DNA of 64,000 bases from an uncultured Candidatus Saccharibacteria bacterium. Lineage in GTDB: Bacteria; Patescibacteriota; Minisyncoccia; Phycocordibacterales; UBA918. Numbering within the stretch: position 1 is the first letter of the stretch; each line of letters opens with the position of its first letter. Shown piece by piece: positions 5,729 to 56,294 of this stretch. The notes beneath the pieces are model-generated. The model did not search any database. It saw nothing but the letters and a program-made list of their open reading frames with translations, and was not told the DNA's origin. Location: assembly GCA_964552045.1 (NCBI GenBank), contig CAZKFF010000002.1, positions 3,855 to 67,854 of the forward strand, written 5' to 3'. The position numbers and the translations under genes are program-made.

Positions 5729-5768
5729 AACGCCCTGCTCTTCGAAGTCTTACAAATAAAAAGAAAAC

Positions 5769-5812: not shown

Positions 5813-5820
5813 GGTGTTCC

Positions 5821-6559: not shown

Positions 6560-6919
6560 ATGAACGAGACGATCAAGAGGTGGCTCAGCCCACAGTCGAT
6601 GATCTCCGGAGCAGTCATCATCTGCGGACTCGGGTTCGGGTTCAATGTCGTGACCTTCACGAGCTCAGCCAAGAGCGCCGCCGATGTGCAGACGCGCACA
6701 GCGGTGGTCGCTGCGCTTACGCCGATCTGCGTGGCGGCCGCGAATGCCGATCCGCTGCGTGACCAGCGTCTGGCCGAGCTGCAGGAAGCCTCGTCGTACC
6801 AACGGACGACCATCGTCACCGACTTCGGATGGGCGACGTTCCCGGGAACCGACAAGGCCAACAGCACCGTGGCCAAGGCGTGCGTCACCGAAGCACTCAA
6901 GCTCCAGACGGACGCCTAG
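6560..6919 (+). CDS. Small membrane-anchored or secreted hypothetical protein
   Basis: GGAGG Shine-Dalgarno (SD) 8 nt upstream of ATG 6560; N-terminal TM/signal segment. Confidence 0.5.
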   Translation: MNETIKRWLSPQSMISGAVIICGLGFGFNVVTFTSSAKSAADVQTRTAVVAALTPICVAAANADPLRDQRLAELQEASSYQRTTIVTDFGWATFPGTDKANSTVAKACVTEALKLQTDA

Positions 6920-8647: not shown

Positions 8648-9334
8648 TCAGGCGTTGTCGAAGTGAGGGTTCCCCGTATCCCAGGCTGCGATGTACCGTG
8701 TGCGAGTGACGACGCCATCGGTGAGCGTGAGGACCAAAAACGGGTCGAGGCCGAATGACTCGACATAGACACGCGCCCCGGACAGGGAGGACGCCGCACG
8801 TGCACGCGCGTGCAGGTGTGCCGGTATGCGGTATCGCGTGAGCGAATCCGCGTCGAAGGCCATGACCTGCATGCGCATCCAGACGCTCGCCGCCTTCATG
8901 AAGGGGGTGTCAGAGGGCAGGAACAGAGGATGCCTGGCCTCGACGATCGCGAAAAGGACGATGTAGGACACTAGCAGGATCACTGCTCCGGCGATACTCC
9001 CTGCTGCTGCAACAAACGGCAGCGCCGGCAGTCCGAAGACTGGAGCGACGAACGCCATGATGACGCAGGCGACGAACGTCGACGCGCCTGCGGCAGCATA
9101 CCGCTTCAGCCACTCGTTGTTCAGCATCAAGGAGGGCAGGAAGATGCTTGAGAGCAGGTACATGAGCGGTCCGACGAGCTTATACAGCCCGATCCGGCTT
9201 TCTTGCACCATCGTGCGCTTGTGGGCGCCGACCTCGGCACGTGGAAGCACGGGGATCCCGAGCGCCTCCAGTTGCGCATCAAGCGGAAGCGGTCGTGCTT
9301 CCGTAATGGCTGTGGCAGTCATTGCCATATTCAT
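8648..9334 (-). CDS. Membrane protein, possibly bacterial PH-domain (YdbS/YdbT-like)
   Basis: Start set at the internal MNMAMT preceded by GGAGAG; two TM helices followed by a soluble domain. Confidence 0.45.
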   Translation of the reverse strand: MNMAMTATAITEARPLPLDAQLEALGIPVLPRAEVGAHKRTMVQESRIGLYKLVGPLMYLLSSIFLPSLMLNNEWLKRYAAAGASTFVACVIMAFVAPVFGLPALPFVAAAGSIAGAVILLVSYIVLFAIVEARHPLFLPSDTPFMKAASVWMRMQVMAFDADSLTRYRIPAHLHARARAASSLSGARVYVESFGLDPFLVLTLTDGVVTRTRYIAAWDTGNPHFDNA

Positions 9335-9491
9335 TGGACTCTCCCTAGAACGTGCGACGGACCATCCGCCGCTTCCGCAGATGAGTATGCCACCGCGCCT
9401 CGCTTTTAGCAATTGTACGGAAAAACTATACAAGTGACGGATCAGATTGCATGAAAAAAGAGACCAGTATTTTTTGGTATACTGGGGTCAT

Positions 9492-10427
9492 ATGCTTTTG
9501 AGAAAAGGATTCGCATTGGCACTTCTGATAGTAGCTCTCTTCGGGGGCGGTTATTTCTATTACATCGCCCAGGCAGTGTGTCCGATCCCGCGTTCATATT
9601 CTATCGGAGAGCTTGATGACCGTTTTGATATTTCTCAAGAGGAGGCGCGCTTAGCGGTTGCCGAAGCAGAATCAGTCTGGGAAGATGCTACCGGCAGGAA
9701 CCTCTTTACATATGAGGAGCGCAATGGCGACCTCACTATCAATTTCAAGTTCGACCAACGGCAGGAGTTCGTCAATGCTGAAGGCGAGCTCAAGGAGAAG
9801 CTTGATGCAACGGAGAATATCAGCGATGCGATAGGGGAGACCTATGCGGCGCTTGTTGAGAAGTATAATGATCTCCGCATGACCTATGCGACACGCGTTG
9901 CAGAATATGAACAGCGGCTCAACCGGTACAATGCGGAGGTCGAGGACTACAATGACAAGGGCGGAGCGCCAGCTGATGTCTATGAAGCGCTTGAGCAGGA
10001 GAAGCGTCTGCTCAACCGCGAACAGTCCGACCTCAACGCTATGGCAGGCGACCTCAATGGGCTGGTATCTGAGATAAATGAGATCGGCGAAAAGGGAAAT
10101 AAGATCATCACGACATATAACACCGGCGTGAATGTCTACAACGAAACGTTCGGCGAAGCGCATGAGTTCACGCAGGGCGATTATGCGGATAATGTCATAA
10201 CCATCTATACATTCGAAGACACGGAAGAGCTGGAGCTCGTGCTTGCCCATGAGCTCGGGCATGCGCTTTCGCTCGATCACGTGGACGGAGAGCGCTCTGT
10301 CATGCACTATCTCATCGGAGAACAGCATGCGGCGCTCTCCGATGAGGACCTCGCTGAGTTCAACCGCGTATGCGGAAATCGCAGCTTGTGGGAGAGGCTG
10401 AAGTTAACATTAGCAATAAATACATAA
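9492..10427 (+). CDS. Membrane-anchored zinc metalloprotease (metzincin/matrixin-like)
   Basis: HELGHALSLDH (HExxHxxxxxH) zinc-binding motif; N-terminal TM helix and coiled-coil region; start at internal Met 9492 (9447 also possible). Confidence 0.7.
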   Translation: MLLRKGFALALLIVALFGGGYFYYIAQAVCPIPRSYSIGELDDRFDISQEEARLAVAEAESVWEDATGRNLFTYEERNGDLTINFKFDQRQEFVNAEGELKEKLDATENISDAIGETYAALVEKYNDLRMTYATRVAEYEQRLNRYNAEVEDYNDKGGAPADVYEALEQEKRLLNREQSDLNAMAGDLNGLVSEINEIGEKGNKIITTYNTGVNVYNETFGEAHEFTQGDYADNVITIYTFEDTEELELVLAHELGHALSLDHVDGERSVMHYLIGEQHAALSDEDLAEFNRVCGNRSLWERLKLTLAINT

Positions 10428-10430
10428 ACC

Positions 10431-11174
10431 ATGGCCATTACGATGTATGAAGGAAGCGCCTACGCGCTGCCGGTTCCGGATAAATCTGTTGATCTCATTG
10501 TCACTGACCCGCCGTTCTGGGGCGCAGATGGCAATTATTATGGCGGAGATCAGGCGCAGCAGCTTTCTTCAGGCAGGAATACAAGCAGGGAGGAATACTG
10601 GAAGAATCTGACAAAGGCCACCGTTGAGATGAACCGCGTCTTGAAAGACAACGGAAGCCTCATCATCCATATCGGACAGGGTGAGTATCCGCGGCTCAAT
10701 ACGCTTGAGTATGAACACATATTGTTCTGCACCAAAGAACTTGGCTTGTCGCTCACTTCAGAGATCTATTGGGATATCAGCCAGAACATGTACTCGTTTG
10801 AGCATCTGCATGGCGAGTACCAGGTATTTCGGCACTACACCAAAAATAAGGACTATATCCGCAATCAGTTTGAAATAACCAACCTCAATCCCGCAACGTG
10901 GAGGATTCCGTACCTTGAACGCGATCCGCGCCTGCTCAAGATCGGGGCGCTCGGGCACGGGTTCCCAATAGAGCTCGCCTCGCGCATGATCCGCTGCTTC
11001 ACCAAACAAGACAGCGTAATCCTCGATCCGTTTGCCGGGACCGGCACGGTCAATGTCGCTGCAAGCCTGCACGGCCGTGATTCGATCTATCTCGACTATT
11101 CATCGGTCCAGTACGCGCTTGCAAAAGAACGCTTCGGCCACTTCAAATGCGAGGTCACGGAGGGTAAAAAATAG
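10431..11174 (+). CDS. Beta-class (circularly permuted) DNA N4-C/N6-A methyltransferase, apparently an orphan
   Basis: Motif IV DPPF near the N-terminus and motif I FAGTGT near the C-terminus; 3-bp gap after the protease gene; no restriction endonuclease nearby. Confidence 0.75.
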   Translation: MAITMYEGSAYALPVPDKSVDLIVTDPPFWGADGNYYGGDQAQQLSSGRNTSREEYWKNLTKATVEMNRVLKDNGSLIIHIGQGEYPRLNTLEYEHILFCTKELGLSLTSEIYWDISQNMYSFEHLHGEYQVFRHYTKNKDYIRNQFEITNLNPATWRIPYLERDPRLLKIGALGHGFPIELASRMIRCFTKQDSVILDPFAGTGTVNVAASLHGRDSIYLDYSSVQYALAKERFGHFKCEVTEGKK

Positions 11175-11294
11175 CCGAGCTGTAAGAAACACGACCGTTA
11201 AACGTCTAGACAGAAGCAACTATTTATTTGCTTGGAGCGGAGCAGAGGCGGTAAAATATAACAGAGTCATTATTACCATTTAGTGAAACATTAC

Positions 11295-12086
11295 ATGGAA
11301 GGAAAATCATTTTGGGGGAAGGAATACGTACAGGTGCTCATGACCGTTGCGCTTGTTGGCGTCATTGTCGCGCTTGCAGCCTATGCGTACTACACGCTCA
11401 AACAGAGCGAAGGCGTCTACACCGGAGCTGCAGTGATCACCGTGCAGGGTGAAGGTGAGGTCAATGCACGGCCGGACATCGGAGAATTCTCATTCTCGGT
11501 CCTTGCTGAAGGGGCAACAGCAGCAGAGGCTCAGGAGAAATCCGCAACAGCATTGAATGCGGCGCTTGATTTCCTTAAGGAGTCAGGCGTGGAAGAGAAG
11601 GATTACAAGACTGCAAATTATTACCTCAATCCGAAATACCGGTATGAACCGACTGTCTGTACGGCAATGTACTGTCCTCCAAGCAATCCGGTTATCGACG
11701 GCTATGAGGTGAGCCAGACCGTGACCGTGAAAGTGCGCGATCTCGCCAAATCAGGCGACCTCATTTCAGGAGTGGGAGATACAGGCGCAACCAACATCAG
11801 CGGATTGTCATTCACCATTGATGACGAGAGCAGCCTCAAAGCGGAGGCGCGCGAGAAGGCTATCGCCGATGCAAAGGCAAAGGCAGACAAGCTTACCAAT
11901 GATCTCGGCGTCCGTATTGTCCGCATGACCGGATTCTGGGAGGATCAGGGCGGTTACTACCCGATGTATGACCGCGCATATGGAGGAGCTGATATGGCAA
12001 TGGAGAGTTCAGCGATGTCTCCAGAGATGCCTGTGGGCGAAAACACCATCCGCAGCACAGTGAGCATCACCTACGAGGTTAAATAA
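11295..12086 (+). CDS. SIMPL-domain (DUF541) periplasmic or membrane-anchored protein
   Basis: N-terminal TM helix plus SIMPL-like repeat core; start uncertain (GTG 11283, ATG 11295 or ATG 11340). Confidence 0.65.
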   Translation: MEGKSFWGKEYVQVLMTVALVGVIVALAAYAYYTLKQSEGVYTGAAVITVQGEGEVNARPDIGEFSFSVLAEGATAAEAQEKSATALNAALDFLKESGVEEKDYKTANYYLNPKYRYEPTVCTAMYCPPSNPVIDGYEVSQTVTVKVRDLAKSGDLISGVGDTGATNISGLSFTIDDESSLKAEAREKAIADAKAKADKLTNDLGVRIVRMTGFWEDQGGYYPMYDRAYGGADMAMESSAMSPEMPVGENTIRSTVSITYEVK

Positions 12087-12115
12087 GTCCGGGGGACTTA
12101 TTTAAAACCTTGACT

Positions 12116-12148
12116 GATATCTTTTGAGGCTCTGCCTCAAAAGATATC
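12116..12148. repeat. Perfect 15-bp inverted repeat (gatatcttttgaggc / gcctcaaaagatatc)
   Basis: Seen directly; no T-run, so it may be a protein-binding palindrome or RNA hairpin. Confidence 0.6.
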
Positions 12149-12203
12149 GACAAGGTGAACCACTCCTGTAAGGAGAAATAAGAAATAGGGCAGAAAATCA
12201 AGT

Positions 12204-12240
12204 AAAGCCCGGCGCTATAGCGCCGGGCTTTACTTTTTCC
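12204..12240 (+). terminator. Intrinsic terminator of the GCCCGGCGC-family palindrome
   Basis: aaagcccggcgc tata gcgccgggcttt followed by a T-run. Confidence 0.7.
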
Positions 12241-12311
12241 AGTGCGGTGGTATCCTGTATGAAATCGCCCGCAGAGGCGTTTTTATTTTGCACAATTAAC
12301 CATCGATCAGT

Positions 12312-12494
12312 ATGAGCAAACTCGGCAATTATCTCCGTGATACTGCAGCAGAAATGAAGCATGTGTCATGGCCAACCCAGATGCAAACCCTCACCTATAC
12401 GGCGCTCGTAATCGGCGTATCGGCGTTGGTCGCGCTGTTTTTGGGAGCGTTCGACTACCTGTTCACACAGGCGCTCGATCTTATTATCAGTTAA
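12312..12494 (+). CDS. secE: Preprotein translocase subunit SecE
   Basis: 60 aa, single C-terminal TM helix, immediately upstream of nusG (conserved secE-nusG-rplK order). Confidence 0.8.
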   Translation: MSKLGNYLRDTAAEMKHVSWPTQMQTLTYTALVIGVSALVALFLGAFDYLFTQALDLIIS

Positions 12495-12506
12495 TACAAC
12501 CATACT

Positions 12507-13052
12507 ATGGCAAAACAACAGACAGACGGCGAACGGCACTGGTACGCGATCCACACCTACTCCGGATACGAGAATGCAGTTGCACGAAACCTCAAGCAGC
12601 GTATTGAATCGCTCGGTATGGAGACGCAGATATTCGATGTCGTCGTCCCGACCGAAAAGAAGATCCGTGTGAAGGGAGGAAAGCGCATCACTGAAGAAGA
12701 GCGTATCTATCCGGGTTATGTTCTGGTTGACATGATCGTCAATGATGAATCCTGGTACATTGTGCGCAATACTCCTCGGGTGACCGGTTTTGTCGGAAGC
12801 GGTACCCAGCCGGTTCCGCTCTCTGAGGCGGAATATCAGGCGCTCATGAGCCGCATGAGCGACGGCAGCGTCAAGCATAAAGTTGACCTCGTTCCCGATG
12901 ATATGGTCATCATCACTGACGGCCCGTTCAAAGAACTCGAGGGCAAAGTAGGCGAAGTGGATGAGCACAGCGGACGAGTGAAGGTGCTTGTGTCCATGTT
13001 CGGACGCGAGACCCCGGTTGAACTCGATTTCTTGCAGGTGAAGAAGATATAA
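12507..13052 (+). CDS. nusG: Transcription termination/antitermination factor NusG
   Basis: NGN domain (WYAIHTYSGYE) and C-terminal KOW motif. Confidence 0.95.
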   Translation: MAKQQTDGERHWYAIHTYSGYENAVARNLKQRIESLGMETQIFDVVVPTEKKIRVKGGKRITEEERIYPGYVLVDMIVNDESWYIVRNTPRVTGFVGSGTQPVPLSEAEYQALMSRMSDGSVKHKVDLVPDDMVIITDGPFKELEGKVGEVDEHSGRVKVLVSMFGRETPVELDFLQVKKI

Positions 13053-40870: not shown

Positions 40871-41941
40871 TCACCCTTTCGCTTCTTCTTTCATTGCCGC
40901 GCGTATGTGCTTGAGTATTTCATTGAGCAGCTTCTTGTCTTCCTTCAGCGTTGTCCGTGCAGCGTCATAGCCGCGTCCGAGCTTCACGGTTGCAGACTCG
41001 TCCGCTCCCGGGGGAGTGTAGCTGTATGCACTTCCTGATTTCGCAATGAGCTTGTATTTCTCTCCGAGCGCGAGTATCTCTCCTTCAACCGAGATGCCTT
41101 CACCATAGATAAGGTCGAATTCCGTGGTGCGGAACGGTGCAGCCACCTTGTTCTTCACGACTTTGACCCGGTGCCGTCCCCCGACGACCTCGTCTCCTTT
41201 CTTTATCTGGGCGATACGGCGGATATCGAGCCGGACCGATGTGTAGAATTTGAGCGCCTTTCCGCCGGGAGTGGTCTCCGGATTGCCGAACATGACGCCG
41301 ATCTGCATGCGGATCTGATTGATGAAAATGACGATCGTGTGCGACTTGGCGACAATGGCGGTGAGCTTGCGGAGCGCCTGGCTCATGAGTCTGGCCTGCT
41401 TGCCCACATGATGGGCGCCCATTTCGCCCTCTATCTCGTCTTTTGGCGTGAGCGCCGCCACAGAGTCGATAACGACGACGCTGATCTTTCCAGAACGGAC
41501 GAGTGACTCAACGATCTCAAGCGCCTGCTCGCCATTATCCGGCTGGGAGATCAGAAGCTCATCGAGCTTCACGCCGATATTCTTCGCATACTCAGGATCA
41601 AGCGCATGTTCCGCGTCGATAAACGCGCAGATACCGCCTTTCTTCTGTGCTTCGGCGATCACATGAAGCGAGAGAGTGGTCTTGCCTGAGGATTCAGGGC
41701 CGTATATCTCAATAATGCGTCCCTGCGGCATGCCGCCGACGCCTAATGCGTCATCAAGGCCGAGCGATCCGGTTGAGATGGAATCGACATTGACCTTCGT
41801 CGTCTCATCAAGCGTCATGATCGCCTCGTCGCCGAACTTGGTCTTGAGGCTTCGCAGTGTCTCGGCGAGGTCTGACGCTCCCGAATCCTGTTCCTCAGAT
41901 TTCGGCGCTGCTGTCTTCTGTGCGGTTTTTTTCGTTGCCAT
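40871..41941 (-). CDS. recA: Recombinase RecA
   Basis: Walker [11 protein letters not shown]1/L2 loop motifs; 356 aa. Confidence 0.97.
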
Positions 41942-45407: not shown

Positions 45408-46116
45408 ATAACTATATTGCAACTCCATCCACGTGCAGTTTGATTCAGACATATGTCTGTGAGAATGTGTCCTTTGTAATCTTTAGAGACGTACCTTCTA
45501 TAAGGGACATACTGGCATACTGTATCAGACAATGACATGGCTTGCCGCGTATTTGCAGCATCGGCATTTTTATTGTCTGGTGTTCTGCTGAGTAAGAAAT
45601 ATGGTGGCCTGTCGTCATAGATACCAGTAAGAGGGAGACGAATAGCATTGACTATTGTCGAGCTAGACCGTATGCTCCTTCGTTATAACGCGGTATATTT
45701 CCGTGCTTGAGCTATCCACAAAGATGTGCGCTCATGCACAACAAAGGACGGTATACTGTTGTTGTGTCACTCTCGGCACGCTTTTTTTTAAGCGAATGCT
45801 TGGGGTGGGATTGTTCATTGAAAATTGAATACGTACAAATTTCTACGACGCACATCGTTTCGATGGTGTGTGCTCATTGTGATGAATTAAATTTTCTGAA
45901 ACGCTTTATTCCTCTATGGTTGCAATACGAAAGACATGCAGACCGGATCCACAGCTAACCTTCATATATATGATGTTAAAGATCATGTGTATGGAGTTAG
46001 TGATATTGCGTACCCCCGGTTCTCGGGCGGTACGAAATATGAATTAATTCATATTATTAGATTAGAAGGTCCCGCTAAGGGGACAAAGAAGTAATTCTTT
46101 ATAAAGAAATTTATTT

Positions 46117-48081
46117 ATGACTATTGCAAATACATTTGCAGCAAAGGCATCAGTTGCTTTCGTTGCAGTGGCAATGGCTCTCATGATGGTTGCTCCTGCA
46201 CAGGCGCAAACAGCTGAAGAGCTTCAGGCACAAATAGATACGCTTATGGCGACTATCGCTTCACTCCAGGCTCAGGCAGGGGGTACAGCAACAGTTTCAG
46301 CTGATGCGTATGTATTTACACGATCACTTACGATCGGCTCACAGGGAGCTGACGTAACTGCTCTGCAGAACTACCTTATCGGCGCAGGCTTCTCTATCCC
46401 AGCTGGAGCAACTGGATACTTCGGTGCTCAGACTCAGGCTGCGGTAGCAGCATGGCAGACAGCTAACGGCGTTATGCCAGCAGCTGGATACTTCGGTCCT
46501 ATTTCACAGGCTAAGTACAATGCTCTCATGGCTGCAATGCCAGACACTGATGATGGTGATGCAGACTCAGATGAGGATGACTCAGACTCAGATGCAGATG
46601 TTGAGCTCTCAGGTGAGGCTTCACTCGACACTGTCGAGATCGACGAAGGTGATGACGATGAGATCGAAGAGGGTCAGGAGGCAGCTCCAGTTGCTGATAT
46701 CACTCTCGAGTTCTCAGATGGAGATGCAGAGGTTTCTCGAATCGACATCGCTCTCGAAAGTAAGGCTGGAAACGATGGAGACAATGATCCATGGGACGTA
46801 TTCGAAGAGGTTTCTCTTTGGGTAGACGGCGATGAGATCGCTTCAATCGAAGCTGATGACGAGGATAATTACCTCGACGAAGATAACGGTTCACTTCGAT
46901 TCTCAGATCTTGACTTCGTAGCTATGGAAGATGAGGAAGTTGTTGTCACTGTTGCGGTAACCCCACAGGGTTCAGTTGATGGTGCTGACGACGGAGAGAC
47001 ATGGCAGGTTGCTGTTGGTTCTATCCGATTTGTTGACGCAGATGATGTGACAACAACAGAGGACAACACAGGTGACCAGGCAGAACTCGATGGCGACTTG
47101 ACTGGTGAGACAGTTGCTGAGTTCGAAGTTGAGGAGGCTGGTGCTGGTGATGATCTTGATCTCAAGTCTTCATCAAATAACCCAGATGCAGACACTCTTC
47201 CTCTTGATGAGGACGACACTACTGAACACGAGGTATTTGCTTTCGAGCTTGATGCTGACGATTCAGACGGTGATGTAAGTCTTGAGGGTCTCACTATCGA
47301 TCTTGCACTCTCTTCAACTTCTCGTGCTCTTAACGAGGTAGTGAAGGATGTACGTGTCGAGATCGACGGTACTTCATTCAGTGCAGATGACTTCGATGGC
47401 GATGATGATACTGAAGCTGTCAACTTCGATATTGACGGTGATGCTGTCATCGCAGCTGGAGAAACTGCTGAAGTCGTGGTAGTTGTAGAGTTCGAAGACA
47501 TGGATGGCGATTCAGACCTCCAGGGCGTAACTCTTACAGCTTCTGTTGACACAGCAGATGTTGACGCTGAAGGTGAAGAATCTGGCGAAGGCGTAACCAT
47601 CGGTGGTTCTGACCAGGATGGTGATGCTCAGACACTTCGATCTGAAGGTCTCGTACTTGAGATCTCTGATGAGCCCGAAGCAACAGAGAAGTCTAAGACT
47701 GTCAGCGACACAAGCCTTGACTACGGTCAATACGTATTCGAGTTTGACGTCACTGCCTTTGGTGAGGACTTCTATGTGGATGAAGCCGCAACGACTATAG
47801 ACTTTGATCTTCTCGTTGATGGTGCAGCATCTACAACTGGTTACACAGCAAATCTCGATATCGCTGATGCTGATGATGCAGGTACTTCAGACTTCGTGAT
47901 CGAAGAGGGTACAACTGCAACATTCACGCTCACAATTGAGACAAACACAGGTCACTCTGGTTCAGCAGAAGTAATCGTCAACTCTCTTGCATACTCTGCA
48001 GCAGACGACGGTACTGAGGAACTTACAGTGGCTGCAACTCCAGATGATGACTGGACTTCAGACGCTCTCATCCTTAACTAA
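46117..48081 (+). CDS. Secreted highly acidic protein with N-terminal peptidoglycan-binding domain
   Basis: Signal peptide; PG_binding_1-like segment (GADVTALQNYLIGAGF...AQTQAAVAAWQ); ~500 aa of Asp/Glu-rich low-complexity repeats; A/T-biased third codon positions. Confidence 0.7.
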   Translation: MTIANTFAAKASVAFVAVAMALMMVAPAQAQTAEELQAQIDTLMATIASLQAQAGGTATVSADAYVFTRSLTIGSQGADVTALQNYLIGAGFSIPAGATGYFGAQTQAAVAAWQTANGVMPAAGYFGPISQAKYNALMAAMPDTDDGDADSDEDDSDSDADVELSGEASLDTVEIDEGDDDEIEEGQEAAPVADITLEFSDGDAEVSRIDIALESKAGNDGDNDPWDVFEEVSLWVDGDEIASIEADDEDNYLDEDNGSLRFSDLDFVAMEDEEVVVTVAVTPQGSVDGADDGETWQVAVGSIRFVDADDVTTTEDNTGDQAELDGDLTGETVAEFEVEEAGAGDDLDLKSSSNNPDADTLPLDEDDTTEHEVFAFELDADDSDGDVSLEGLTIDLALSSTSRALNEVVKDVRVEIDGTSFSADDFDGDDDTEAVNFDIDGDAVIAAGETAEVVVVVEFEDMDGDSDLQGVTLTASVDTADVDAEGEESGEGVTIGGSDQDGDAQTLRSEGLVLEISDEPEATEKSKTVSDTSLDYGQYVFEFDVTAFGEDFYVDEAATTIDFDLLVDGAASTTGYTANLDIADADDAGTSDFVIEEGTTATFTLTIETNTGHSGSAEVIVNSLAYSAADDGTEELTVAATPDDDWTSDALILN

Positions 48082-48130
48082 TCTTAGTTAGAGTGAGTAG
48101 ACTGGATCTAGCCTAAAACTGGATACAACA

Positions 48131-48158
48131 AAAAATCCCCTCACGGGGATTTTTTGTT
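48131..48158 (+). terminator. Intrinsic terminator
   Basis: aaaaatcccc tcac ggggatttttt. Confidence 0.75.
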
Positions 48159-48196
48159 GTACGGGTGTAGGGTACGTATTATCGTTCAACAAACAC

Positions 48197-48232
48197 AAAA
48201 AGCCCGACGGCGTAGCCGTCGGGCTTTGTGTG
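48197..48232 (+). terminator. Second intrinsic terminator
   Basis: aaaaagcccgacggc gtag ccgtcgggcttt followed by a T-rich run. Confidence 0.7.
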
Positions 48233-48415: not shown

Positions 48416-48898
48416 ATGATACGTGTCACCGACCAGTATTTCTGGAACATTGTTTTCCTCCTTTTCTATATCGGCCTGCTTGTCATGGCGGTTATCATTC
48501 TCGATACGGAGGCGCGCATGGGGTACCCCGACCTGACGCTCCTGGATTTGTCGCTTATCACGCTGGCGTCCTTTCGCGTGACGCGCATGTTCGTCTACGA
48601 CAGCATGACCAAGTTCCTGCGCGAGCAGTTCTACGATGTGAAGATGGTCCGCAACAAAGTAATGCTCGTGAAGCCGACTGTGGGCCCGCGCCGCACGCTT
48701 GCCGACCTCATCGGCTGCCCGTGGTGCTTCGGCGTGTGGGCAACCACGTGCGTCGCGTTCTTCTACATGCTCACGCCGTACGCATATTTCCCTATACTCA
48801 TCCTTGCGCTCGCTGGTGTGGCGACATTTATACAATTGTTCGCCAACATGATCGGATGGAAGGCGGAGCAGCTCAAACGCGAAACAGAAGGCGAATAG
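48416..48898 (+). CDS. DUF1360-family membrane protein
   Basis: CPWCFGVW motif and four TM helices typical of DUF1360; its last ~130 nt (48739-48864) are duplicated at 52121-52246. Confidence 0.65.
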   Translation: MIRVTDQYFWNIVFLLFYIGLLVMAVIILDTEARMGYPDLTLLDLSLITLASFRVTRMFVYDSMTKFLREQFYDVKMVRNKVMLVKPTVGPRRTLADLIGCPWCFGVWATTCVAFFYMLTPYAYFPILILALAGVATFIQLFANMIGWKAEQLKRETEGE

Positions 48899-48909
48899 TT
48901 TTTTTACCT

Positions 48910-50349
48910 ATGAATCTTTCTAAACTCTCCGTGGCGCTCGTCATTGCGTTCATCGTGTGTTCTATTGCCGCAGTTGCGCTGATCCTCCTCCTCGGTGGGA
49001 CAGAATTGCTGTGGTTTCTGCGGGTGAACCTGATCCAGGCATTCGGGCTTGGAATTGCCGTCACAGCGTCACTCTTCTTCTTCCTTCGTCTGGTGTGGCG
49101 GCTCCACGCGCTCCCCATGGAGATCTCGATGGTATTTTTCGTTATCGGTGTTGCGATGTTTGTCTCAGTGTCCTTTGGCAGTCTCTACGCATTTCAGTAC
49201 CCCGTGTTTGTGAATTCGTTCGGACCGGGTATGGGACCGGGACTGCCGCTCTCTAATGTCATCACATTCTTCCGTCACGTTCATTCATTTGAACGTGTCG
49301 AGAATATTGCCCGCAATCCCAACGACGTCCCGCCGCCGATCACCCTTCAAAAGGAAGCAGCGGATCCGATCGCTCTTGTAGCCACAAGTTCTGTTGCCAC
49401 AAGTTCTGCAACAACTACGGGTCTCCAGAACGGAACATCCACTCCGTTGACGGAAGCCGCTGTAACAGAGCGCGGGAATGAGGTCGTGAAGGTATACCTT
49501 GAGACCAAAGAGGTCTTAAGTGAGATCGGTCCCGATATTGTTTTCAATTACTGGACGTTCAACGGCACGGTTCCCGGACCGTTCGTGCGCGTGCGCGAAG
49601 GCGACACTGTGGAGGTCACCATTCACAACGATGAGACGAGCCTCCACAGCCACAATATCGACTTCCATGCAGCAACCGGTCCGGGAGGCGGCGGAGCAGT
49701 ATCGGTGGTTGCTCCCGGAGAAACCAAGACGTTCAGTTTCAAAGCGATGGACCCCGGACTCTTTGTGTACCACTGTGCGGTGCCGAATATGGCAGTCCAT
49801 ATGACCCACGGCATGTACGGCCTTATCTTGGTGGAACCCGAAGAAGGTTTAACGCCGGTTGATAAGGAGTTCTACATAATGCAGGGCGAGCTCTATACCA
49901 CAGGGAAGCTTGGTCGCTCAGGACTGCAGGTCTTTGACGCGCAGAAAATGCTCGACGGCAAGCCGGAGTATGTTGTGTTCAATGGCAAAACCGGAGGATT
50001 GGGTGCTGAGATGCAGGCGAAGGTTGGAGATAAGATCCGCATATATGTCGGCAACGGCGGGGTGACTTCCGTATCTTCATTCCATGTGGTCGGCGAGGTG
50101 TTTGATACCGTCTATCCCGAAGCATCGCTTGGAGGCGCAGTATTTAAGGATATCCAAACAACCGTCATCCCTGCAGGTGGCGCGACAATCGTCGAGTTTA
50201 CTGTTGACTATCCGGGCAAGTACACGCTTGTTGATCACGCGCTCATGCGTACTGACAAAGGTGCATGGGGAACGCTCACCGTAAAAGGCGAGGCAGACCC
50301 GTCGATCTTCAATGGTGATTTCAGCACAAGCGGAACCGCAGGTCACTAA
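48910..50349 (+). CDS. nirK: Copper-containing nitrite reductase (NirK-like) with N-terminal polytopic membrane extension
   Basis: Type-2 Cu HNIDFHAATG and type-1 Cu CAVPNMAVHMTHGM motifs, two cupredoxin domains; start at ATG 48910 (upstream Arg-rich ORF extension rejected); ~170-aa 4-TM N-terminus plus Ser/Thr linker. Confidence 0.8.
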   Translation: MNLSKLSVALVIAFIVCSIAAVALILLLGGTELLWFLRVNLIQAFGLGIAVTASLFFFLRLVWRLHALPMEISMVFFVIGVAMFVSVSFGSLYAFQYPVFVNSFGPGMGPGLPLSNVITFFRHVHSFERVENIARNPNDVPPPITLQKEAADPIALVATSSVATSSATTTGLQNGTSTPLTEAAVTERGNEVVKVYLETKEVLSEIGPDIVFNYWTFNGTVPGPFVRVREGDTVEVTIHNDETSLHSHNIDFHAATGPGGGGAVSVVAPGETKTFSFKAMDPGLFVYHCAVPNMAVHMTHGMYGLILVEPEEGLTPVDKEFYIMQGELYTTGKLGRSGLQVFDAQKMLDGKPEYVVFNGKTGGLGAEMQAKVGDKIRIYVGNGGVTSVSSFHVVGEVFDTVYPEASLGGAVFKDIQTTVIPAGGATIVEFTVDYPGKYTLVDHALMRTDKGAWGTLTVKGEADPSIFNGDFSTSGTAGH

Positions 50350-50391
50350 GCACTCTCTTACGCTTCGGACGAATATGCTGTGTGATAGCAT

Positions 50392-52047
50392 ATGCATAGT
50401 ATGAAGCTTGCCGAGGAACTCAAGCAACGGATCACGGGAGAAGTCACTGACGACCCTTCTACACTCGAGAAGTACAGCGAAGACACGAGCATTTTCCATA
50501 TCAAGCCCGCGTGCGTTGTGGTACCAAAAAACAGTGATGATCTTCGTGCGCTTATACAGTTCGCCGGAGAAAATCCGGGCGTATCACTCACTGCACGTAG
50601 TGCCGGAACCGATATGTCGGGCGGTCCGTTAAACGATTCGGTCATCGTCTGTATGACCGAACATTTCAACCGCATCATTGAAGTGGGGGAGGATTATGCA
50701 ATTGCGCAGCCGGGAGTTTTCTACCGCGATTTTGAAAAAGCAACGCTCCAAAAAGGATTGTTGCTGCCGTGCTACACCGCCTCACGTGAACTCAATACCG
50801 TCGGTGGCATGGTCGCCAATAATTCCGCAGGAGAGAAGTCGCTTACGTACGGTAAAACAGACAAGTATGTGCGCGAACTTAAGGTCATGTTGCGCGATGG
50901 CAACGAGTATGTGTTCCGTAAGCTCAACCGCCAGGAGCTCGAGGAAAAGAAAAGTCTCCAGACATTCGAGGGGCAGATCTACCGCGATGTTGATTGGCTC
51001 ATTCATGAGCGCATCGATACCATCCGCGCGGGCAAACCGATCGTCTCAAAGAATTCCGCAGGGTACGCGATCTGGAATGTCTGGAACGAAGCAGAGGATA
51101 CGTTTGATCTCACCCAGCTTTTTGTTGGTTCGCAGGGGACACTCGGGCTGATCACCGAGATCACCTTCAAACTGGTGAAACCAAAAACCCATTCCCGTAT
51201 GCTCATACTGTTTTTGCGACCGCATCACATGAGCATTCTGGGGGAGCTTGTGAATACGGTCCTGCGAGAGAAACCTGAAAGTTTTGAATCGTATGATGAC
51301 AAGACCTTTGGCGTGATGCTCCGTGTATTACCGCAGCTTATGAAGCGTCTGGGAGGTAATGTTTTCACGTTGCCGTTTTCATTTTTGCCTGAAGCGCGGA
51401 TGTTCCTCACCGGCGGTATACCAAAGCTGGTTCTTATGGCTGAGTTTACCGGAGATTCTGAAGCTGAGGTCATCGCAGCAGCAGAACGTGCACAAGATGA
51501 CGTACGGGCACGCTTTACGGTTGCGAGTCACGTCACGCGTTCGCAAAAAGAGGGTGACAAATACTGGATCATACGTCGGGAAAGTTTCAATCTGCTTCGC
51601 AACAATGTGCACGAGAAACATACAGCACCGTTTATCGACGACATTTCCGTACGACCGGAGTATTTGCCGGAATTCCTCCCGAAGCTGTATGCCATCATGG
51701 CGCAGTACAAGATCATCTTCACGATCGCCGGACACATCGGTGACGGAAATTTCCATATCATTCCGCTCATGGATTTCTCCCGTCCCGATTTTGTGACCAT
51801 CATCCGTGAACTTTCCAACAGGGTGTATGCACTCGTGGGGGAATACCACGGTTCGATCACGGGGGAGCACAACGACGGGCTTATCCGTACACCGTTTCTT
51901 GATCGGATGTTCTCTCCGCAGATGCTTAGCCTTTTTGCAGATCTGAAGAAGGTCTTTGATCCGCAGGGCATTTTCAATCCACACAAAAAGGTCGATGGTG
52001 ACATGGACCTTCTCTTCCGTTCGATCAAGCACGAGGTGAGGGATTAG
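50392..52047 (+). CDS. FAD-linked oxidase (PCMH-type FAD-binding domain; GlcD/D-lactate dehydrogenase family)
   Basis: FAD_binding_4-like N-terminal domain (ARSAGTDMSGGPLN) plus C-terminal substrate domain. Confidence 0.85.
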   Translation: MHSMKLAEELKQRITGEVTDDPSTLEKYSEDTSIFHIKPACVVVPKNSDDLRALIQFAGENPGVSLTARSAGTDMSGGPLNDSVIVCMTEHFNRIIEVGEDYAIAQPGVFYRDFEKATLQKGLLLPCYTASRELNTVGGMVANNSAGEKSLTYGKTDKYVRELKVMLRDGNEYVFRKLNRQELEEKKSLQTFEGQIYRDVDWLIHERIDTIRAGKPIVSKNSAGYAIWNVWNEAEDTFDLTQLFVGSQGTLGLITEITFKLVKPKTHSRMLILFLRPHHMSILGELVNTVLREKPESFESYDDKTFGVMLRVLPQLMKRLGGNVFTLPFSFLPEARMFLTGGIPKLVLMAEFTGDSEAEVIAAAERAQDDVRARFTVASHVTRSQKEGDKYWIIRRESFNLLRNNVHEKHTAPFIDDISVRPEYLPEFLPKLYAIMAQYKIIFTIAGHIGDGNFHIIPLMDFSRPDFVTIIRELSNRVYALVGEYHGSITGEHNDGLIRTPFLDRMFSPQMLSLFADLKKVFDPQGIFNPHKKVDGDMDLLFRSIKHEVRD

Positions 52048-52116
52048 GTTTGGAATCTCCGTATACGTGACGTATACCTTCCGTCACGTACGTTCATCGT
52101 TTATCGGGGCATCGCA

Positions 52117-52275
52117 TAATGGCAACCACGTGCGTCGCGTTCTTCTACATGCTCACGCCGTACGCATATTTCCCGATACTCATCCTTGCGCTCGCTGGTG
52201 TGGCGACATTTATACAATTGTTCGCCAACATGATCGGATGGAAGGCTGAACAGCTAAAACAGGATGTGGAAGGGT
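52117..52275 (+). pseudogene. Orphaned 3' fragment of the DUF1360 gene (copy of 48739-48898)
   Basis: 126 nt identical to the 3' end of the intact gene at 48416-48898 except for one mismatch, then a diverged tail; only the C-terminal ~50 codons are present. Confidence 0.7.
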
Positions 52276-52345
52276 AGAGGAGTTTGACATTCGCATCAAA
52301 AGGAGCACTATAGTGCCCGGCATAGTCAAGAAAGGGGTAGAGATA

Positions 52346-52519
52346 ATGCGGTCAAACACTCGGGTGACGCTTGCAGTCGCTGCGGCCATTCTCTTGGCGG
52401 GGGGAATTTTTCATTTGGTCGAGAAATTTCCTCCTCCGAGCGATACGCGGTGTTTCGCTCCGGGCGGATCCTTCTACGTAAAGCTGAATGAGGATGGCAC
52501 CTTCGCGAAGATCGAGTAA
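52346..52519 (+). CDS. Small secreted or membrane protein (57 aa, hypothetical)
   Basis: GGGGTAGAG SD-like sequence before ATG 52346; N-terminal hydrophobic segment. Confidence 0.35.
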   Translation: MRSNTRVTLAVAAAILLAGGIFHLVEKFPPPSDTRCFAPGGSFYVKLNEDGTFAKIE

Positions 52520-52526
52520 GACAAAC

Positions 52527-52552
52527 AGGCCGGCGCACGTCGGCCTTTTTCG
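52527..52552 (+). terminator. Intrinsic terminator
   Basis: aggccggcgcacgtcggcct followed by TTTTT. Confidence 0.65.
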
Positions 52553-52570
52553 TGCCTGTATGCTTATGTG

Positions 52571-52591
52571 GTCGGGATGACGGGAATCGAA
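52571..52591 (-). repeat. tRNA 3'-end-like repeat, copy 1 (T-loop, acceptor 3' strand and CCA) without a tRNA body
   Basis: Minus-strand reading TTCGATTCCCGTCATCCCGACCA; upstream sequence forms no D, anticodon or T-stem pairing. Confidence 0.5.
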
Positions 52592-52683
52592 GCTTACAGC
52601 TTCAGTACAGGTTGTCGGTGTTTCTTATCGCAAGCTCCAGAAATACCGACAACCTCTTCGATCGCTCCGAGCGATAGAAACAC

Positions 52684-52717
52684 AAAAGCTCAGTGCAAGG
52701 CTGAGCTTTTGTGTTTT
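52684..52717. terminator. Bidirectional terminator hairpin
   Basis: aaaagctcag tgcaagg ctgagctttt with T/A runs on both sides. Confidence 0.65.
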
Positions 52718-52738
52718 GTCGGGATGCCGGGAATCGAA
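52718..52738 (-). repeat. tRNA 3'-end-like repeat, copy 2
   Basis: gtcgggatgCcgggaatcgaa, 20/21 identical to copy 1; no complementary 5' acceptor strand within 90 nt. Confidence 0.5.
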
Positions 52739-52796
52739 CCTGGGCCACACGTCCTCTGGGCGCAGATGCCCACCGGACATCTGGTGAAAAACTGAG

Positions 52797-52867
52797 TCGG
52801 GGTAACCGGAATCGAACCGATGTCTTACCCACCCCATGGGTATATACTGCCCCTATACTATACCCCG
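52797..52867 (-). tRNA. tRNA-Pro (anticodon GGG)
   Basis: Manual fold: acceptor CGGGGTA/TACCCCG, anticodon stem TACCC/GGGTA with loop AUGGGGU, T-arm ATCGG-TTCGATT-CCGGT; D-stem needs G-U pairs. Confidence 0.7.
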
Positions 52868-53003
52868 AATCAATTTTTCACCCCCATGCGTGCGCACTGT
52901 CACTATGCTACACCCCGATTGACGCACCAGTATAGCCGATGCTGCGCTTGATTGACAACAAATGGTACATTGTGTCTAATGGTCGCAGGTAAAGGAGGAT
53001 CTC

Positions 53004-53405
53004 ATGCTACTTACTCACCGGTCTGTTGTGACCTTTCTGTTCGTGTTCTTCTCTGCGGGGCTTCTGTTCTACGTACTCGGCGTTGCCGAGAACGGATCTG
53101 ATCTGATGCTCTCCATTGCTGGCAGAGCACCGATCCCGTTCTGGCTGCTGTGCTTCGCTTCCGCATTCATCGGGACGCTCTCGGGCTTCGCATTTGGGGA
53201 GCAGACCAGGCTCTCGGGAGTACTCTATCTCTTTGGGGCGCCGCTGTTCTTCGTCCTCGGGTTCGGAGAGGTACGGCCGTTGTTGCTTGTCCTCTCAGTC
53301 TATGCTTTCCACGCCTTCATGTTTCTCCTCGTCCTCCTCTCTGTGGGACTGATGCAGAAGCGCGAGTATGAAGCTGAGCAGCATGACACTATATCGGGGA
53401 TCTGA
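53004..53405 (+). CDS. Small 4-TM membrane protein (hypothetical)
   Basis: 133-aa hydrophobic ORF; GGAGGA SD before the ATG. Confidence 0.55.
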   Translation: MLLTHRSVVTFLFVFFSAGLLFYVLGVAENGSDLMLSIAGRAPIPFWLLCFASAFIGTLSGFAFGEQTRLSGVLYLFGAPLFFVLGFGEVRPLLLVLSVYAFHAFMFLLVLLSVGLMQKREYEAEQHDTISGI

Positions 53406-53407
53406 CC

Positions 53408-53455
53408 GGAGGGCCGCAACGCTTGCGTTGCGGCCCTTGTTTGTTTGCACAGTTG
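53408..53455 (+). terminator. Intrinsic terminator
   Basis: gggccgcaacgc ttgc gttgcggccc followed by a T-rich run. Confidence 0.75.
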
Positions 53456-53469
53456 TGGTATTGTGTCGT

Positions 53470-53627
53470 GCAACAGGCTCAAGACAGTTGGTCTCTTTCC
53501 GTAAAGGGAAAGAGGTAATGAACCGCTTGGTTCGCCAGCCGAGGTCCACTATTTTTTAGATGGAGGTCGAAGCCTAATGGAACCTACGTTCCACTGGGCC
53601 TGTTTTTATCCAATGATTTCTTAAATC
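53470..53627 (+). promoter_or_regulatory. Possible ribosomal protein L10 leader (autoregulatory structure) upstream of rplJ
   Basis: ~160-nt structured untranslated region with hairpins (ctctttcc/ggaaagag; tggaacc/ggttcca); assignment by position and analogy only. Confidence 0.25.
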
Positions 53628-54119
53628 ATGGCAATTACAAAAGCAAAGAAGGAAGAGATCCTTGCAAAACTCGAAGGCATCAAGAATGAAGCCGACTCCA
53701 TCGTGTTCGTCCATTTCAACGGCTTGCCGGTTAAGGACAGTACCGATATGCGCGCTAAACTGCGCGAAGAGGGAGTTGGATTCCTCGTTGCCAAGAAGAC
53801 GCTGATGGAGCGGGCATTTAATGGTGCATTCGAAGGTGAGATGCCTATGCTTGACGGCGAGATTGCCGTTGCGTATTCAGAAGACGCAATCGCTCCAGCG
53901 CAGAACATCAAAGAGTTCGCAGGGAAATACAAGGACAATCTTGCGATCGTTGGCGGAGTGTTCCAGGGCGTATACAAGAGCAAGGAAGAGATGACAGAGA
54001 TAGCATCTATACCGTCACTTCAGGTGCTGCGCGGTATGTTCGTCAACATCATCAATTCTCCGATCCAGGGACTGGTTATTGGTCTCGATGCAATCGCTCA
54101 GAAAAAGGAAGCAGCATAA
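53628..54119 (+). CDS. rplJ: 50S ribosomal protein L10
   Basis: 163 aa; conserved L10 N-terminus. Confidence 0.95.
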   Translation: MAITKAKKEEILAKLEGIKNEADSIVFVHFNGLPVKDSTDMRAKLREEGVGFLVAKKTLMERAFNGAFEGEMPMLDGEIAVAYSEDAIAPAQNIKEFAGKYKDNLAIVGGVFQGVYKSKEEMTEIASIPSLQVLRGMFVNIINSPIQGLVIGLDAIAQKKEAA

Positions 54120-54140
54120 TTTATTGTTAATACAAATATC

Positions 54141-54569
54141 ATGGCAGAAGAAACAACAGAGGTAGTTGCAGAAACTACAGAAGAAACAATCGAGGTGCCT
54201 GCGAAATTCAAGGCGCTTGTTGATCAGGTAGAAGAGATGTCAGTGCTTGAGCTTCATGAGCTCGTGAAGGTACTCGAAAAGAAATTCGGCGTTTCAGCAC
54301 AGGCAGTTGCTGTCGCAGGTCCGGCAGCAGGCAATGGCGCTGATGCGGGCGAGGAGCAGTCAGAGTTCACTGTTGAACTTACTGACGGCGGCGCTCAGAA
54401 GATCGCGGTCATCAAGGTAGTGAAGGAGGCGCTTGGTCTCGGACTCAAGGAAGCGAAGGATATGGTAGACGCAGCTCCTTCAGTCGTGAAGGAGGGTATG
54501 AAGAAGGAGGATGCGGAAGCCCTTAAAGCAAAGCTTGAGGAAGCTGGTGCTAAAGTGACATTGAAATAA
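54141..54569 (+). CDS. rplL: 50S ribosomal protein L7/L12
   Basis: 142 aa; Ala/Gly hinge and C-terminal domain. Confidence 0.95.
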
Positions 54570-54863: not shown

Positions 54864-56294
54864 ATGCCAGAAAAAACCCGAACCCTTTTAGAAGGACCGA
54901 TCATCACCTCGCTTGTTACGCTGGCGCTTCCGATCGTATGTGCCAATCTCCTGCAATCAGCGTACCAGCTCACTGACGCTTTTTGGGTAGGCCGACTTGG
55001 CGGAACGGCTGTTGCTGCCGTATCGGTAAGTTTTCCGGTTATTTTTCTGCAGATCGCGCTTGGTGCAGGCTTGGCGGTTGCGGGGTCAACGCTCATCGCC
55101 CAGTACTTCGGTGCCCGTAATGAAGCAATGGTCAACCGGGTCGCTGCACAGACGCTGTTAATGGTTGCGTGCGTGTCGCTTCTCCTTGGAACGCTCGGTT
55201 TTTTTCTTGCTCCGCACATACTTACGCTCATGGGAGTATCATCTGAAGTCCATGATGCAGCGCTCGGATTCATGCGCGTATCATTTGCCGGATTGATCTT
55301 TACCTTTGGATTCGCTATGTTCCAGTCGATCATGCGCGGCATCGGACAGGTGACGCTTCCTTTATATATTGTGGGCAGTACCGTATTACTCAATGCCCTG
55401 CTCGATCCGTTCTTCATCTTCGGTTTTGGACCGTTTGCGGGACATGGAGTAATGGGTGCTGCAGTAGCTACTCTGTGCACGCAGGGTATTGCCGCGCTCT
55501 GCGGCCTTCTGGTCCTGTTTTGGGGTAAGTACGGTATTCATTTGCATCTGCACGATTTCGCACCGGATCTTTCATTCATGAAGCGTGCGTTTCTCCTCGG
55601 GTTTCCCGCTTCCGTTGAGCAGTCCGCTCGGGCGCTTGGTCTCACGATCATGACCTTTCTCATCGCAAGCTTCGGCACGCTTGCGGTCGCATCATATGGT
55701 GTCGGGTCGAATATCCTGCAGTTTATTGTCATTATCGCGCTCGGATTTTCTATGGCGGTATCGACGCTCGTCGGGCAGAACATCGGTGCCGGACAAATAG
55801 AGCGCGCGTCTGCCATTGCCCGCTTGGGAGCGGTTCTTTCGTTCAGTATCTTCTCCGTTCTGGGCGTATTTGCGTTCCTGTTCGCACCGCATCTCATAGC
55901 ATTCTTTGTGCCGAATGATCCTGAAGTGATCAAAGCGGGAGCGACTTTTGTGCGCACTGTTTCCCTCACGTATGGATTTATCGGTCTGCAGATGTCCTTG
56001 AACGGCGTTTTCCGCGCATCAGGCAACATGCTGGCGACTATGATCCTCGCGCTCGTTTCCCAATGGGTGCTGCAGTTTCCGATCGCATATCTGCTCTCAA
56101 AGCACACCTCGCTCGGAATCGGAGGGTTGTGGTGGGCGTTCCCGGTCACCAACATTCTTATGGCGGGCATCACATTCGCGTGGTATCTGAAAGGGGACTG
56201 GAAAAAGAAGCGTCTCACGCAGGAAGAGCAGTTCGCCGAGCAGGTCACCGAGGAAATCATCATTGAAGAAGGAGGACACAGGAGAGCCTCCTAG
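54864..56294 (+). CDS. MATE-family multidrug/oligosaccharide efflux transporter
   Basis: 476 aa; 12 TM helices with the duplicated MatE-domain pattern. Confidence 0.85.
   Translation: MPEKTRTLLEGPIITSLVTLALPIVCANLLQSAYQLTDAFWVGRLGGTAVAAVSVSFPVIFLQIALGAGLAVAGSTLIAQYFGARNEAMVNRVAAQTLLMVACVSLLLGTLGFFLAPHILTLMGVSSEVHDAALGFMRVSFAGLIFTFGFAMFQSIMRGIGQVTLPLYIVGSTVLLNALLDPFFIFGFGPFAGHGVMGAAVATLCTQGIAALCGLLVLFWGKYGIHLHLHDFAPDLSFMKRAFLLGFPASVEQSARALGLTIMTFLIASFGTLAVASYGVGSNILQFIVIIALGFSMAVSTLVGQNIGAGQIERASAIARLGAVLSFSIFSVLGVFAFLFAPHLIAFFVPNDPEVIKAGATFVRTVSLTYGFIGLQMSLNGVFRASGNMLATMILALVSQWVLQFPIAYLLSKHTSLGIGGLWWAFPVTNILMAGITFAWYLKGDWKKKRLTQEEQFAEQVTEEIIIEEGGHRRAS

Follow-up and report, generated by a model that had tools for sequence, protein, structure and literature searches.

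A duplicated DUF1360 gene end around nirK and an FAD-linked oxidase: a probable scar of homologous and illegitimate recombination at a modular gap in a candidate phyla radiation genome

The window analysed here, a stretch of 64,000 nucleotides (nt) from contig CAZKFF010000002.1 of an uncultured Candidatus Saccharibacteria bacterium (NCBI GenBank assembly GCA_964552045.1), carries nirK, a gene for a membrane-anchored copper nitrite reductase, and a gene for a flavin adenine dinucleotide (FAD)-linked oxidase, termed FADox, between two copies of the 3′ end of a DUF1360 gene. The insert is bounded by a direct repeat of 126 nt, termed H. The DUF1360 gene on its left is intact and ends in a tail termed A, and the distal copy is shortened at its 5′ side and ends in a different tail, termed B. 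The best explanation, to which we give about an even chance of being right, is a homology-driven displacement of the DUF1360 3′ end by RecA-type recombination; the scar itself shows no mark of a mobile element and points to homologous together with illegitimate recombination. Bacteria of the candidate phyla radiation (CPR) have tiny genomes and patchy metabolic traits, and the movement of genes such as nirK among them is poorly documented. The locus is a concrete case of one conserved gap in which an exchange scar shows the position of the crossover. The mechanism is already known from other bacteria, and the value of the locus is thus that of an illustration, together with the caution that a duplicated gene end alone is no proof of an integrase-driven island.

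The repeat, its tails and its junctions

Sequence reading, a repeat finder and a base-by-base comparison agree that positions 48739-48864 recur at 52121-52246, i.e., over 126 nt, with one mismatch (T at 48793 versus G at 52175, where four relatives have G), as the first-pass annotation of this DNA had proposed. The left edge of H is sharp, the 60 nt upstream of each copy being mutually unrelated, and the distal copy lacks the first 108 codons, i.e., the 5′ two-thirds, of the gene, in agreement with its earlier description as a 3′ fragment without a 5′ part. An in-frame ATG at 52119 lies right at the left edge of this copy. The copies had also been described as diverging after 126 nt; the change at this point is indeed sharp, but homology persists beyond it in a diverged form, each copy running on to its own stop codon. 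The last 11 codons of the intact gene (tail A, ending in KRETEGE-stop) differ from the distal copy, and tails A and B show 14 mismatches across 48865-48897 (33 positions, ungapped register). In the following, related loci and contigs are given L numbers and proteins P numbers. The KRETEGE ending is common to P0002, P0004, P0005, P0006 and P0009, and tail B (52247-52277) encodes an ending, KQDVEG-stop, which resembles the KQDMEG ending of the cassette-free L065/P0012.

The repeat finder scored the pair of copies as 153 nt at 93%, a value that hides an uneven distribution: H differs by only 0.8% and the tail by about 40%, with the switch exactly at 48864/48865. Such an abrupt switch indicates that two diverged alleles recombined at this point and excludes a plain duplication; even divergence, as expected of a simple tandem or segmental duplication, is contradicted by the difference between the tail and H. 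Both copies of H carry common lineage-specific bases and are equidistant from every relative (76-83%), their identity being 82% to L011 and L004, 77% to L013 and 76% to L065.

Both junctions of the insert are confirmed by Logan contigs, which are independent 31-mer assemblies of several runs. Exact matches were obtained for 48739-50351 (L001) and 48835-52150 (L002), and further ones for 45596-48203 (L003) and 52474-54511 (L072). L001 thus starts at 48739, and the ends of L002 fall 30 nt inside each copy of H. Since L002 covers the passage from FADox to the repeat, this junction is real DNA, and the joint between the distal H and the 33-nt filler on its left, termed J, was recovered in two samples. 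Contigs of 31-mers that end 30 nt inside the copies do not, however, discriminate between the integrated form and an empty site accompanied by a circle or a tandem array.

A cassette-free relic downstream of the insert

Between the FADox flank and the transfer RNA (tRNA) gene that follows, the window carries about 650 nt (52088-52744) that L011 lacks. Within these, 52121-52594 (about 475 nt) is collinear with positions 472-1188 of the cassette-free L065, and the two share the order of DUF1360 3′ end, small open reading frame (ORF), terminator and tRNA-Pro 3′ end. The DUF1360 3′ end of the relic is 76% identical to that of L065, whose protein ends in KQDMEG, and 52524-52591, which covers the terminator, a spacer and the tRNA-Pro 3′ end, is 84% identical to L065 1119-1188. 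The similarity to the L065 tRNA-Pro stops in the T-loop. This collinearity indicates that the stretch is a relic of a cassette-free allele, with the distal copy at its left end, and the comparison supports the reading of this copy as a probably older, displaced DUF1360 3′ end. The first-pass annotation had claimed that the insert brings its own gene 3′ end and displaces the original, and both the collinearity with L065 and the KQDMEG ending support this.

No second copy of the DUF1360 end was found in L004, L011, L013, L065 or L066 (the last judged by its gene list). For the ORF in the relic, orf68, a search of 5.8 billion proteins returned no homologue, Pfam and NCBIfam gave no family, and exact-protein look-ups in the collection searched returned no record. 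The filler J, the orf68 region and a spacer to the right of the relic, termed X, match no fetched locus and nothing elsewhere in the window.

The gap between DUF1360 and rplJ in related loci

The setting of the insert was compared across 38 related loci that have DUF1360 and rplJ on one contig. They belong to a clade of Paceibacteria/Kaiserbacteria-like CPR bacteria, the homologues being named Kaiserbacteria, Paceibacterota or Parcubacteria. A backbone of FtsK, p240, a peptidoglycan-binding protein, DUF1360, the gap, the ribosomal proteins L10 and L12 and p243 is conserved across the 38 loci; the window also holds recA, ftsK, rplJ, rplL and the 23S and 5S rRNA genes. The gap measures 4730 nt in the window and 288-1600 nt in the loci without nirK/FADox, except L016 (4.8 kb). 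Among the 38 loci, nirK/FADox occupy the gap only in the L004 group, L066 and L067. DUF1360 is directly followed by nirK and FADox in the L004 group (L004-L009), in L010/L011 and in L066, with no distal repeat. L067, which has no distal repeat either, shows one extra ORF between DUF1360 and nirK, and in its gap nirK is followed by genes for the small and large subunits of ribonucleotide reductase (RNR), PNPOx and an ArsR-type regulator (module at 2840-6587), and only then by FADox. L016 carries at 8768-12760 the small and large subunits of a class I RNR, a PNPOx-like protein and an ArsR-type regulator, without nirK/FADox. FADox occurs without nirK in L018 and L052, and L013, L022, L065 and many others have none of nirK, FADox and the RNR module.

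Such variable contents indicate that nirK and FADox are accessory at this position and are no obligate pair. An obligate nirK-FADox cassette was rejected, FADox standing alone in L018/L052 and the RNR module lying between the two genes in L067. Judged by its gene content, the DUF1360-rplJ gap is best described as a putative modular recombination hotspot, which takes up accessory modules in varying combinations, and it seems to collect oxygen- and redox-related genes. The first-pass annotation had seen here a horizontally acquired two-gene islet. This holds insofar as the genes are accessory, are absent from most related loci and have identities that conflict with those of their flanks; it fails in that they do not form a fixed pair.

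The conflict is apparent from the nearest relatives of the individual proteins. FtsK, DUF1360 and p243 are nearest to L004 (94, 94 and 96%, respectively), whereas NirK and FADox are nearest to L011 (88 and 98%, respectively) and only 74 and 70% identical to L004, and L10 is nearest to L022 and L065 (91 and 87%, respectively). Relative to L011, the fraction of codons that differ while encoding the same amino acid is about 0.42 in DUF1360, 0.33 in nirK, 0.23 in FADox and 0.25 in orf133. The synonymous divergence of the window from L011 was searched for a sharp breakpoint and shows none, its values following a gradient from DUF1360 to FADox; with a gradient and no step, no precise donor is claimed.

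A possible mechanism and its alternatives

If the DUF1360 end was displaced by homology-driven recombination, the ancestral chromosome would have carried a cassette-free allele with DUF1360 (KQDVEG end), orf68, the terminator and tRNA-Pro, and DNA arriving from a close relative would have brought a DUF1360 3′ end (tail A), nirK, FADox and the FADox 3′ flank, of which about 73 nt are found on the insert. The left side of the incoming DNA would have recombined through the homology of DUF1360, and its right end, lacking homology, would have been attached by an illegitimate joint at the position that corresponds to 48739. The route may have been a single crossover of a circularised fragment or a homology-facilitated illegitimate recombination of linear DNA. 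The outcome would be an intact DUF1360 gene rebuilt with tail A, the old 3′ end being pushed downstream as an orphan, and the repeat-free relatives would be products of a two-sided homologous replacement with DUF1360 and the tRNA/orf133/rplJ side as arms. We infer the direction of this event and the part played by RecA, whose gene lies 7 kb away (40871-41941). The displacement predicts that the orphan should precede the genes that once lay downstream of the replaced allele, and the collinearity with L065 agrees with this. The distal joint has a sharp left edge and an unmatched 33-nt filler.

Several points weigh against such a displacement. The near-identity of H needs a second assumption, namely a conspecific donor with a nearly identical H or a later gene conversion. 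The relic is also cut on its right, in the tRNA T-loop next to the 122-nt spacer X, for which a separate or more complex event would be needed, and the 31-mer contigs do not phase the two ends of H. Moreover, a conspecific strain without the cassette was found neither among GTDB species-representative genomes, where the window's species did not turn up and the L004 lineage was the closest match, nor among metagenome contigs, where no match exceeded 75% identity, so that the recipient allele had to be reconstructed from an 82%-identical relative.

If X once directly adjoined the FADox flank, a reversed history would explain the order equally well. In that case nirK-FADox would have been resident, having been inherited together with orf133 and the split tRNA described below, as in L011, and the cassette-free piece of about 475 nt, from a conspecific strain, would be a later insertion between the FADox flank and the tRNA. 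One insertion would give the succession of J, relic and X; the sequences at the two ends of the relic (DUF1360 and tRNA-Pro) are also present in a cassette-bearing chromosome, and nirK, FADox, orf133 and the split tRNA are all shared with L011 at similar synonymous divergence. We nevertheless regard this history as rather unlikely, given that neither joint would have drawn on anchoring homology, both being illegitimate, that no relative shows the contiguity of J and X which it requires, and that tail A would be native, yet the abrupt boundary between H and the tail would call for an earlier allele-level recombination. Quite unlikely, too, is a site-specific integration, of which the first-pass annotation had taken the pattern to be the signature: an element would have supplied a replacement DUF1360 end at its attachment site (attP), the integrase having been lost or having acted in trans, and the 126 nt would be the block of identity between the attachment (att) sites. 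A gene rebuilt by the 3′ end of the insert, with the original fragment downstream, agrees with such an event, and the adjacent tRNA-Pro, with a T-loop 3′ fragment and an anticodon-loop insertion, bears marks that integrases often leave, suggesting that integrase-type enzymes may have acted nearby. However, no recombinase gene was found in the 3.4 kb, where Pfam and NCBIfam show only NirK and FAD-oxidase domains, or in the neighbouring genes scanned (recA, a sigma factor, VanY, MatE and an aminotransferase, with FtsK covered by synteny with L004), which agrees with the earlier statement that no integrase remains. The L004, L011, L066 and L067 lineages have the DUF1360-nirK arrangement with no repeat. 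An att identity block need not reach 126 nt, and a long near-identical block with an abrupt change at the tail fits allelic homologous recombination better than a short att core. Among viral contigs, queries with NirK and DUF1360 returned no close relative and only DUF1360 matches at 31-35%. The perfect 9-bp inverted repeat that had been reported at the junction (TACGTGACG-n9-CGTCACGTA, beginning 17 nt past the FADox stop) exists but is not specific to the junction: the flank sequence up to 52087 is common to L010/L011, which have neither the DUF1360 repeat nor the junction, and the inverted repeat was rejected as an att feature because it belongs to a FADox 3′ flank shared with the repeat-free L011. 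Perfect 9-bp hairpins occur at about 80 positions in the window, as against about 2 in shuffled sequences.

Two further alternatives are very unlikely. An old duplication of the DUF1360 3′ end, arising locally in a single genome and with its core kept uniform by gene conversion, draws on the facts that direct repeats 3.4 kb apart readily convert one another, with a tract that would stop at the shortened left edge, and that the tail is the most variable part of the DUF1360 family. It leaves the order of small ORF, terminator and tRNA 3′ end, as in the cassette-free locus, unexplained, and the five relatives listed above as having no second copy of the DUF1360 end also count against it. Just as improbable is an assembly artefact or a mixed population, in which the assembler would have threaded into one path a cassette-free chromosome (5′DUF1360-H-tail B-orf68) and a 3,382-bp circle or tandem array (H-tail A-nirK-FADox-J). 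The breaks of the Logan contigs at the repeat edges correspond to a two-in, two-out node beyond the resolution of k=31, and exact-protein look-ups in the collection searched returned no record of the full 160-aa DUF1360 protein. Yet the J-H junction is real in both samples, so that a second copy of H follows FADox in real DNA under any resolution, and an identical NirK is present on a 111-kb NCBI contig. A mixture would require a tandem or circular cassette plus a co-occurring empty strain, and a 3.4-kb circle without a replication gene would not persist. Routes in which circles of the relic integrate via H or via the tRNA 3′ end were also considered and were rejected because the gene orders that they predict mismatch the window.

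A consequence of the arrangement, which we regard as a long shot, would be that the 126-bp repeats act as a recombinase-free switch, in which a RecA-dependent pop-out deletes nirK-FADox precisely and restores an intact DUF1360 gene with the KQDVEG ending. If so, a population could toggle between nitrite-reducing and cassette-free states, and the excised 3.4-kb DNA, bearing a homology arm of its own, could be taken up by related cells and integrate there through a single crossover, which would amount to a minimal, integrase-free transfer of metabolic modules among CPR bacteria.

Relation to known systems

A displacement model was already proposed for the orphaned 3′ ends in type VI secretion system (T6SS) and Rhs loci (Kirchberger et al. 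2017, PMC5361080), and in that article the orphan fragments of Rhs, CdiA and T6SS effectors are put down to homology-facilitated illegitimate recombination (PMC5361080, citing Jackson et al. 2009). We note several likenesses between those systems and the present locus. The 5′ part of the gene serves as the homology anchor, the new 3′ end arrives with downstream cargo, and the old 3′ end keeps a conserved stretch and becomes a downstream orphan, all with no recombinase; in addition, most relatives show a clean replacement without orphans. The differences are that the anchor here is a small DUF1360 membrane protein and not a polymorphic toxin, that the cargo is metabolic (nirK and FADox) and not a toxin/immunity pair, that there is one orphan and no array, and that the host belongs to the CPR.

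The elements e14 and phage 21 insert in the 3′ end of Escherichia coli icd, carry a replacement end, encode an integrase and excise. The present gene is likewise rebuilt by the diverged 3′ end of the insert, with the displaced fragment at the far side; in contrast to those elements, the insert has no integrase and only two metabolic genes, which relatives hold without a repeat. Genomic islands that target tRNA genes leave duplicated tRNA 3′ ends, and the neighbouring tRNA-Pro similarly has a duplicated 3′ end from the T-loop onward and an anticodon-loop insertion. Unlike in such islands, however, only 122 nt lie between the tRNA repeats, and the nirK cassette is bounded by the DUF1360 repeat instead.

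For nirK itself, a study of CPR genomes describes, in Kaiserbacteria/Parcubacteria, a CPR-specific clade with conserved copper ligands and a patchy distribution, and argues that the gene was not recently acquired from a source outside the CPR (Danczak et al. 2017, PMC5581439). The NirK of the window resembles those proteins, being a copper nitrite reductase that is patchy in the CPR, and the data presented here concern an exchange within the clade at one hotspot, which the passages of that study considered here do not mention (PMC5581439). The separate CPR clade of nirK described there fits an exchange within the group (PMC5581439).

The DUF1360, nirK and FADox genes

The coordinates of the features are collected in Table 1. 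The presence of a membrane-anchored copper nitrite reductase and an FAD-linked oxidase between the repeat copies, as called in the first-pass annotation, agrees with their domains and motifs. NirK scores 322.4 bits against TIGR02376 and thus passes the curated equivalog threshold (cutoff 296.3), and its best match among solved structures is AniA (1kbv, E=2e-99), with which it shares identical copper-ligand motifs (HNxDFHAATG, YHCA...H...GMYG, SSFHV and LVDH). It has an N-terminal membrane segment. On these grounds the protein is classed as a true NirK. Hundreds of NirK homologues of 460-500 amino acids (aa) are named Kaiserbacteria, Parcubacteria or Patescibacteria. For FADox no equivalog was found, its NCBIfam matches lying under the cutoff. 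The distance from the DUF1360 stop to the nirK start is 11 nt in the window and 10-15 nt in the L004, L011 and L066 lineages, a short spacing which may hint at co-expression.

The DUF1360 proteins of the clade are very conserved, with up to 94% identity despite saturated synonymous sites, and they have an invariant CPWC motif beside predicted membrane helices.

Table 1. Positions of the features in and around the DUF1360-rplJ gap of the window
Feature	Position	Strand	Basis or remark
Intact DUF1360 gene, 160 aa	48416..48898	+	Pfam PF07098, E=1e-20; full-length alignment to 120 homologues
Proximal copy of H	48739..48864	+	Repeat finder, base comparison
Tail A, diverged DUF1360 gene end, with nirK directly after	48865..48898	+	Mismatches to tail B
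nirK, membrane-anchored copper-containing nitrite reductase, 479 aa	48910..50349	+	TIGR02376, AniA alignment
FADox, FAD-linked oxidase, 551 aa, GlcD/YdiJ-like	50392..52047	+	PF01565 (FAD_binding_4) and PF02913 (FAD-oxidase_C)
9-bp inverted repeat hairpin, FADox 3′ flank	52064..52090	+	Fold -12.3 kcal/mol, no T-run
Junction filler J, 33 nt, FADox flank to distal H	52088..52120	+	Covered by Logan contig L002
Possible 52-aa ORF: ATG, H and tail B (KQDVEG-stop), putative displaced DUF1360 3′ end	52119..52277	+	Translation
Distal copy of H	52121..52246	+	Repeat finder, base comparison
orf68, small membrane-type orphan ORF, alternative ATG at 52346	52313..52519	+	Position of the 118-aa ORF of L065
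Intrinsic terminator after orf68	52527..52546	+	Similarity to L065
tRNA-Pro 3′-end fragment, T-loop to CCA, right end of relic	52571..52594	-	Repeat family D4; L065 tRNA-Pro alignment
Spacer X, 122 nt, three hairpins, tRNA fragment to tRNA locus	52595..52716	.	Inverted repeats I9, I11
Ancestral tRNA-Pro(GGG), split, enclosing a second, intact tRNA-Pro(GGG)	52717..52920	-	Halves at 52717-52750 (3′) and 52882-52920 (5′), inner tRNA at 52796-52867
orf133, conserved-backbone membrane protein, upstream of rplJ	53004..53405	+	Homologues in L011, L022, L013, L066, L065
rplJ (ribosomal protein L10), right border of variable gap	53628..54119	+	Synteny across 38 loci

The tRNA-Pro locus

The tRNA-Pro(GGG) gene to the right of X is split into a 3′ half (52717-52750) and a 5′ half (52882-52920), with the break at about position 37/38, i.e., in the anticodon loop. 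The 131-nt insert between the halves carries a different, intact tRNA-Pro(GGG) at 52796-52867, which is flanked by 9-nt inverted repeats (GGTGAAAAA/TTTTTCACC) and then by a hairpin. A tRNA-Pro split by an insert that carries a second tRNA-Pro is a more unusual feature than the scar of the nirK cassette. The nested unit is also present in L011 (4360-4560), with one compensatory change in the hairpin, and tRNA-Pro(GGG) is intact and unsplit in L004, L022 and L065. A promoter-like site lies upstream of the unit at 52958-52929. The window, L004, L032 and L065 have the tRNA-Pro(GGG) of the gap on the minus strand; in L011, L022 and L033 it lies on the plus strand, and these opposite orientations indicate that the whole tRNA unit inverts between lineages.

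A 24-nt copy of the tRNA-Pro 3′ end, from the T-loop to CCA, lies 147 nt from the tRNA (52571-52594 compared with 52718-52741, 92% identical). In sequence, this copy and the spacer X resemble a decayed insertion at the tRNA T-loop.

Other variable positions nearby

The segment 48159-48300, from the terminators of the peptidoglycan-binding gene to DUF1360, is also variable, as seen in a comparison with L010 81-3819. The upstream genes of L010 encode a 120-aa, an LCAT-like 799-aa and a 127-aa protein, the first two of which are found upstream of DUF1360 in many relatives. The genes for the 120-aa and LCAT-like proteins are missing from the window and from L004, and no homologue of any of the three was found in the window. 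On the other side of the gap, a MatE-family transporter gene lies at 54864-56294, between rplL and p243; L004, L013 and L065 do not have it, and it is thus a lineage-specific insertion.

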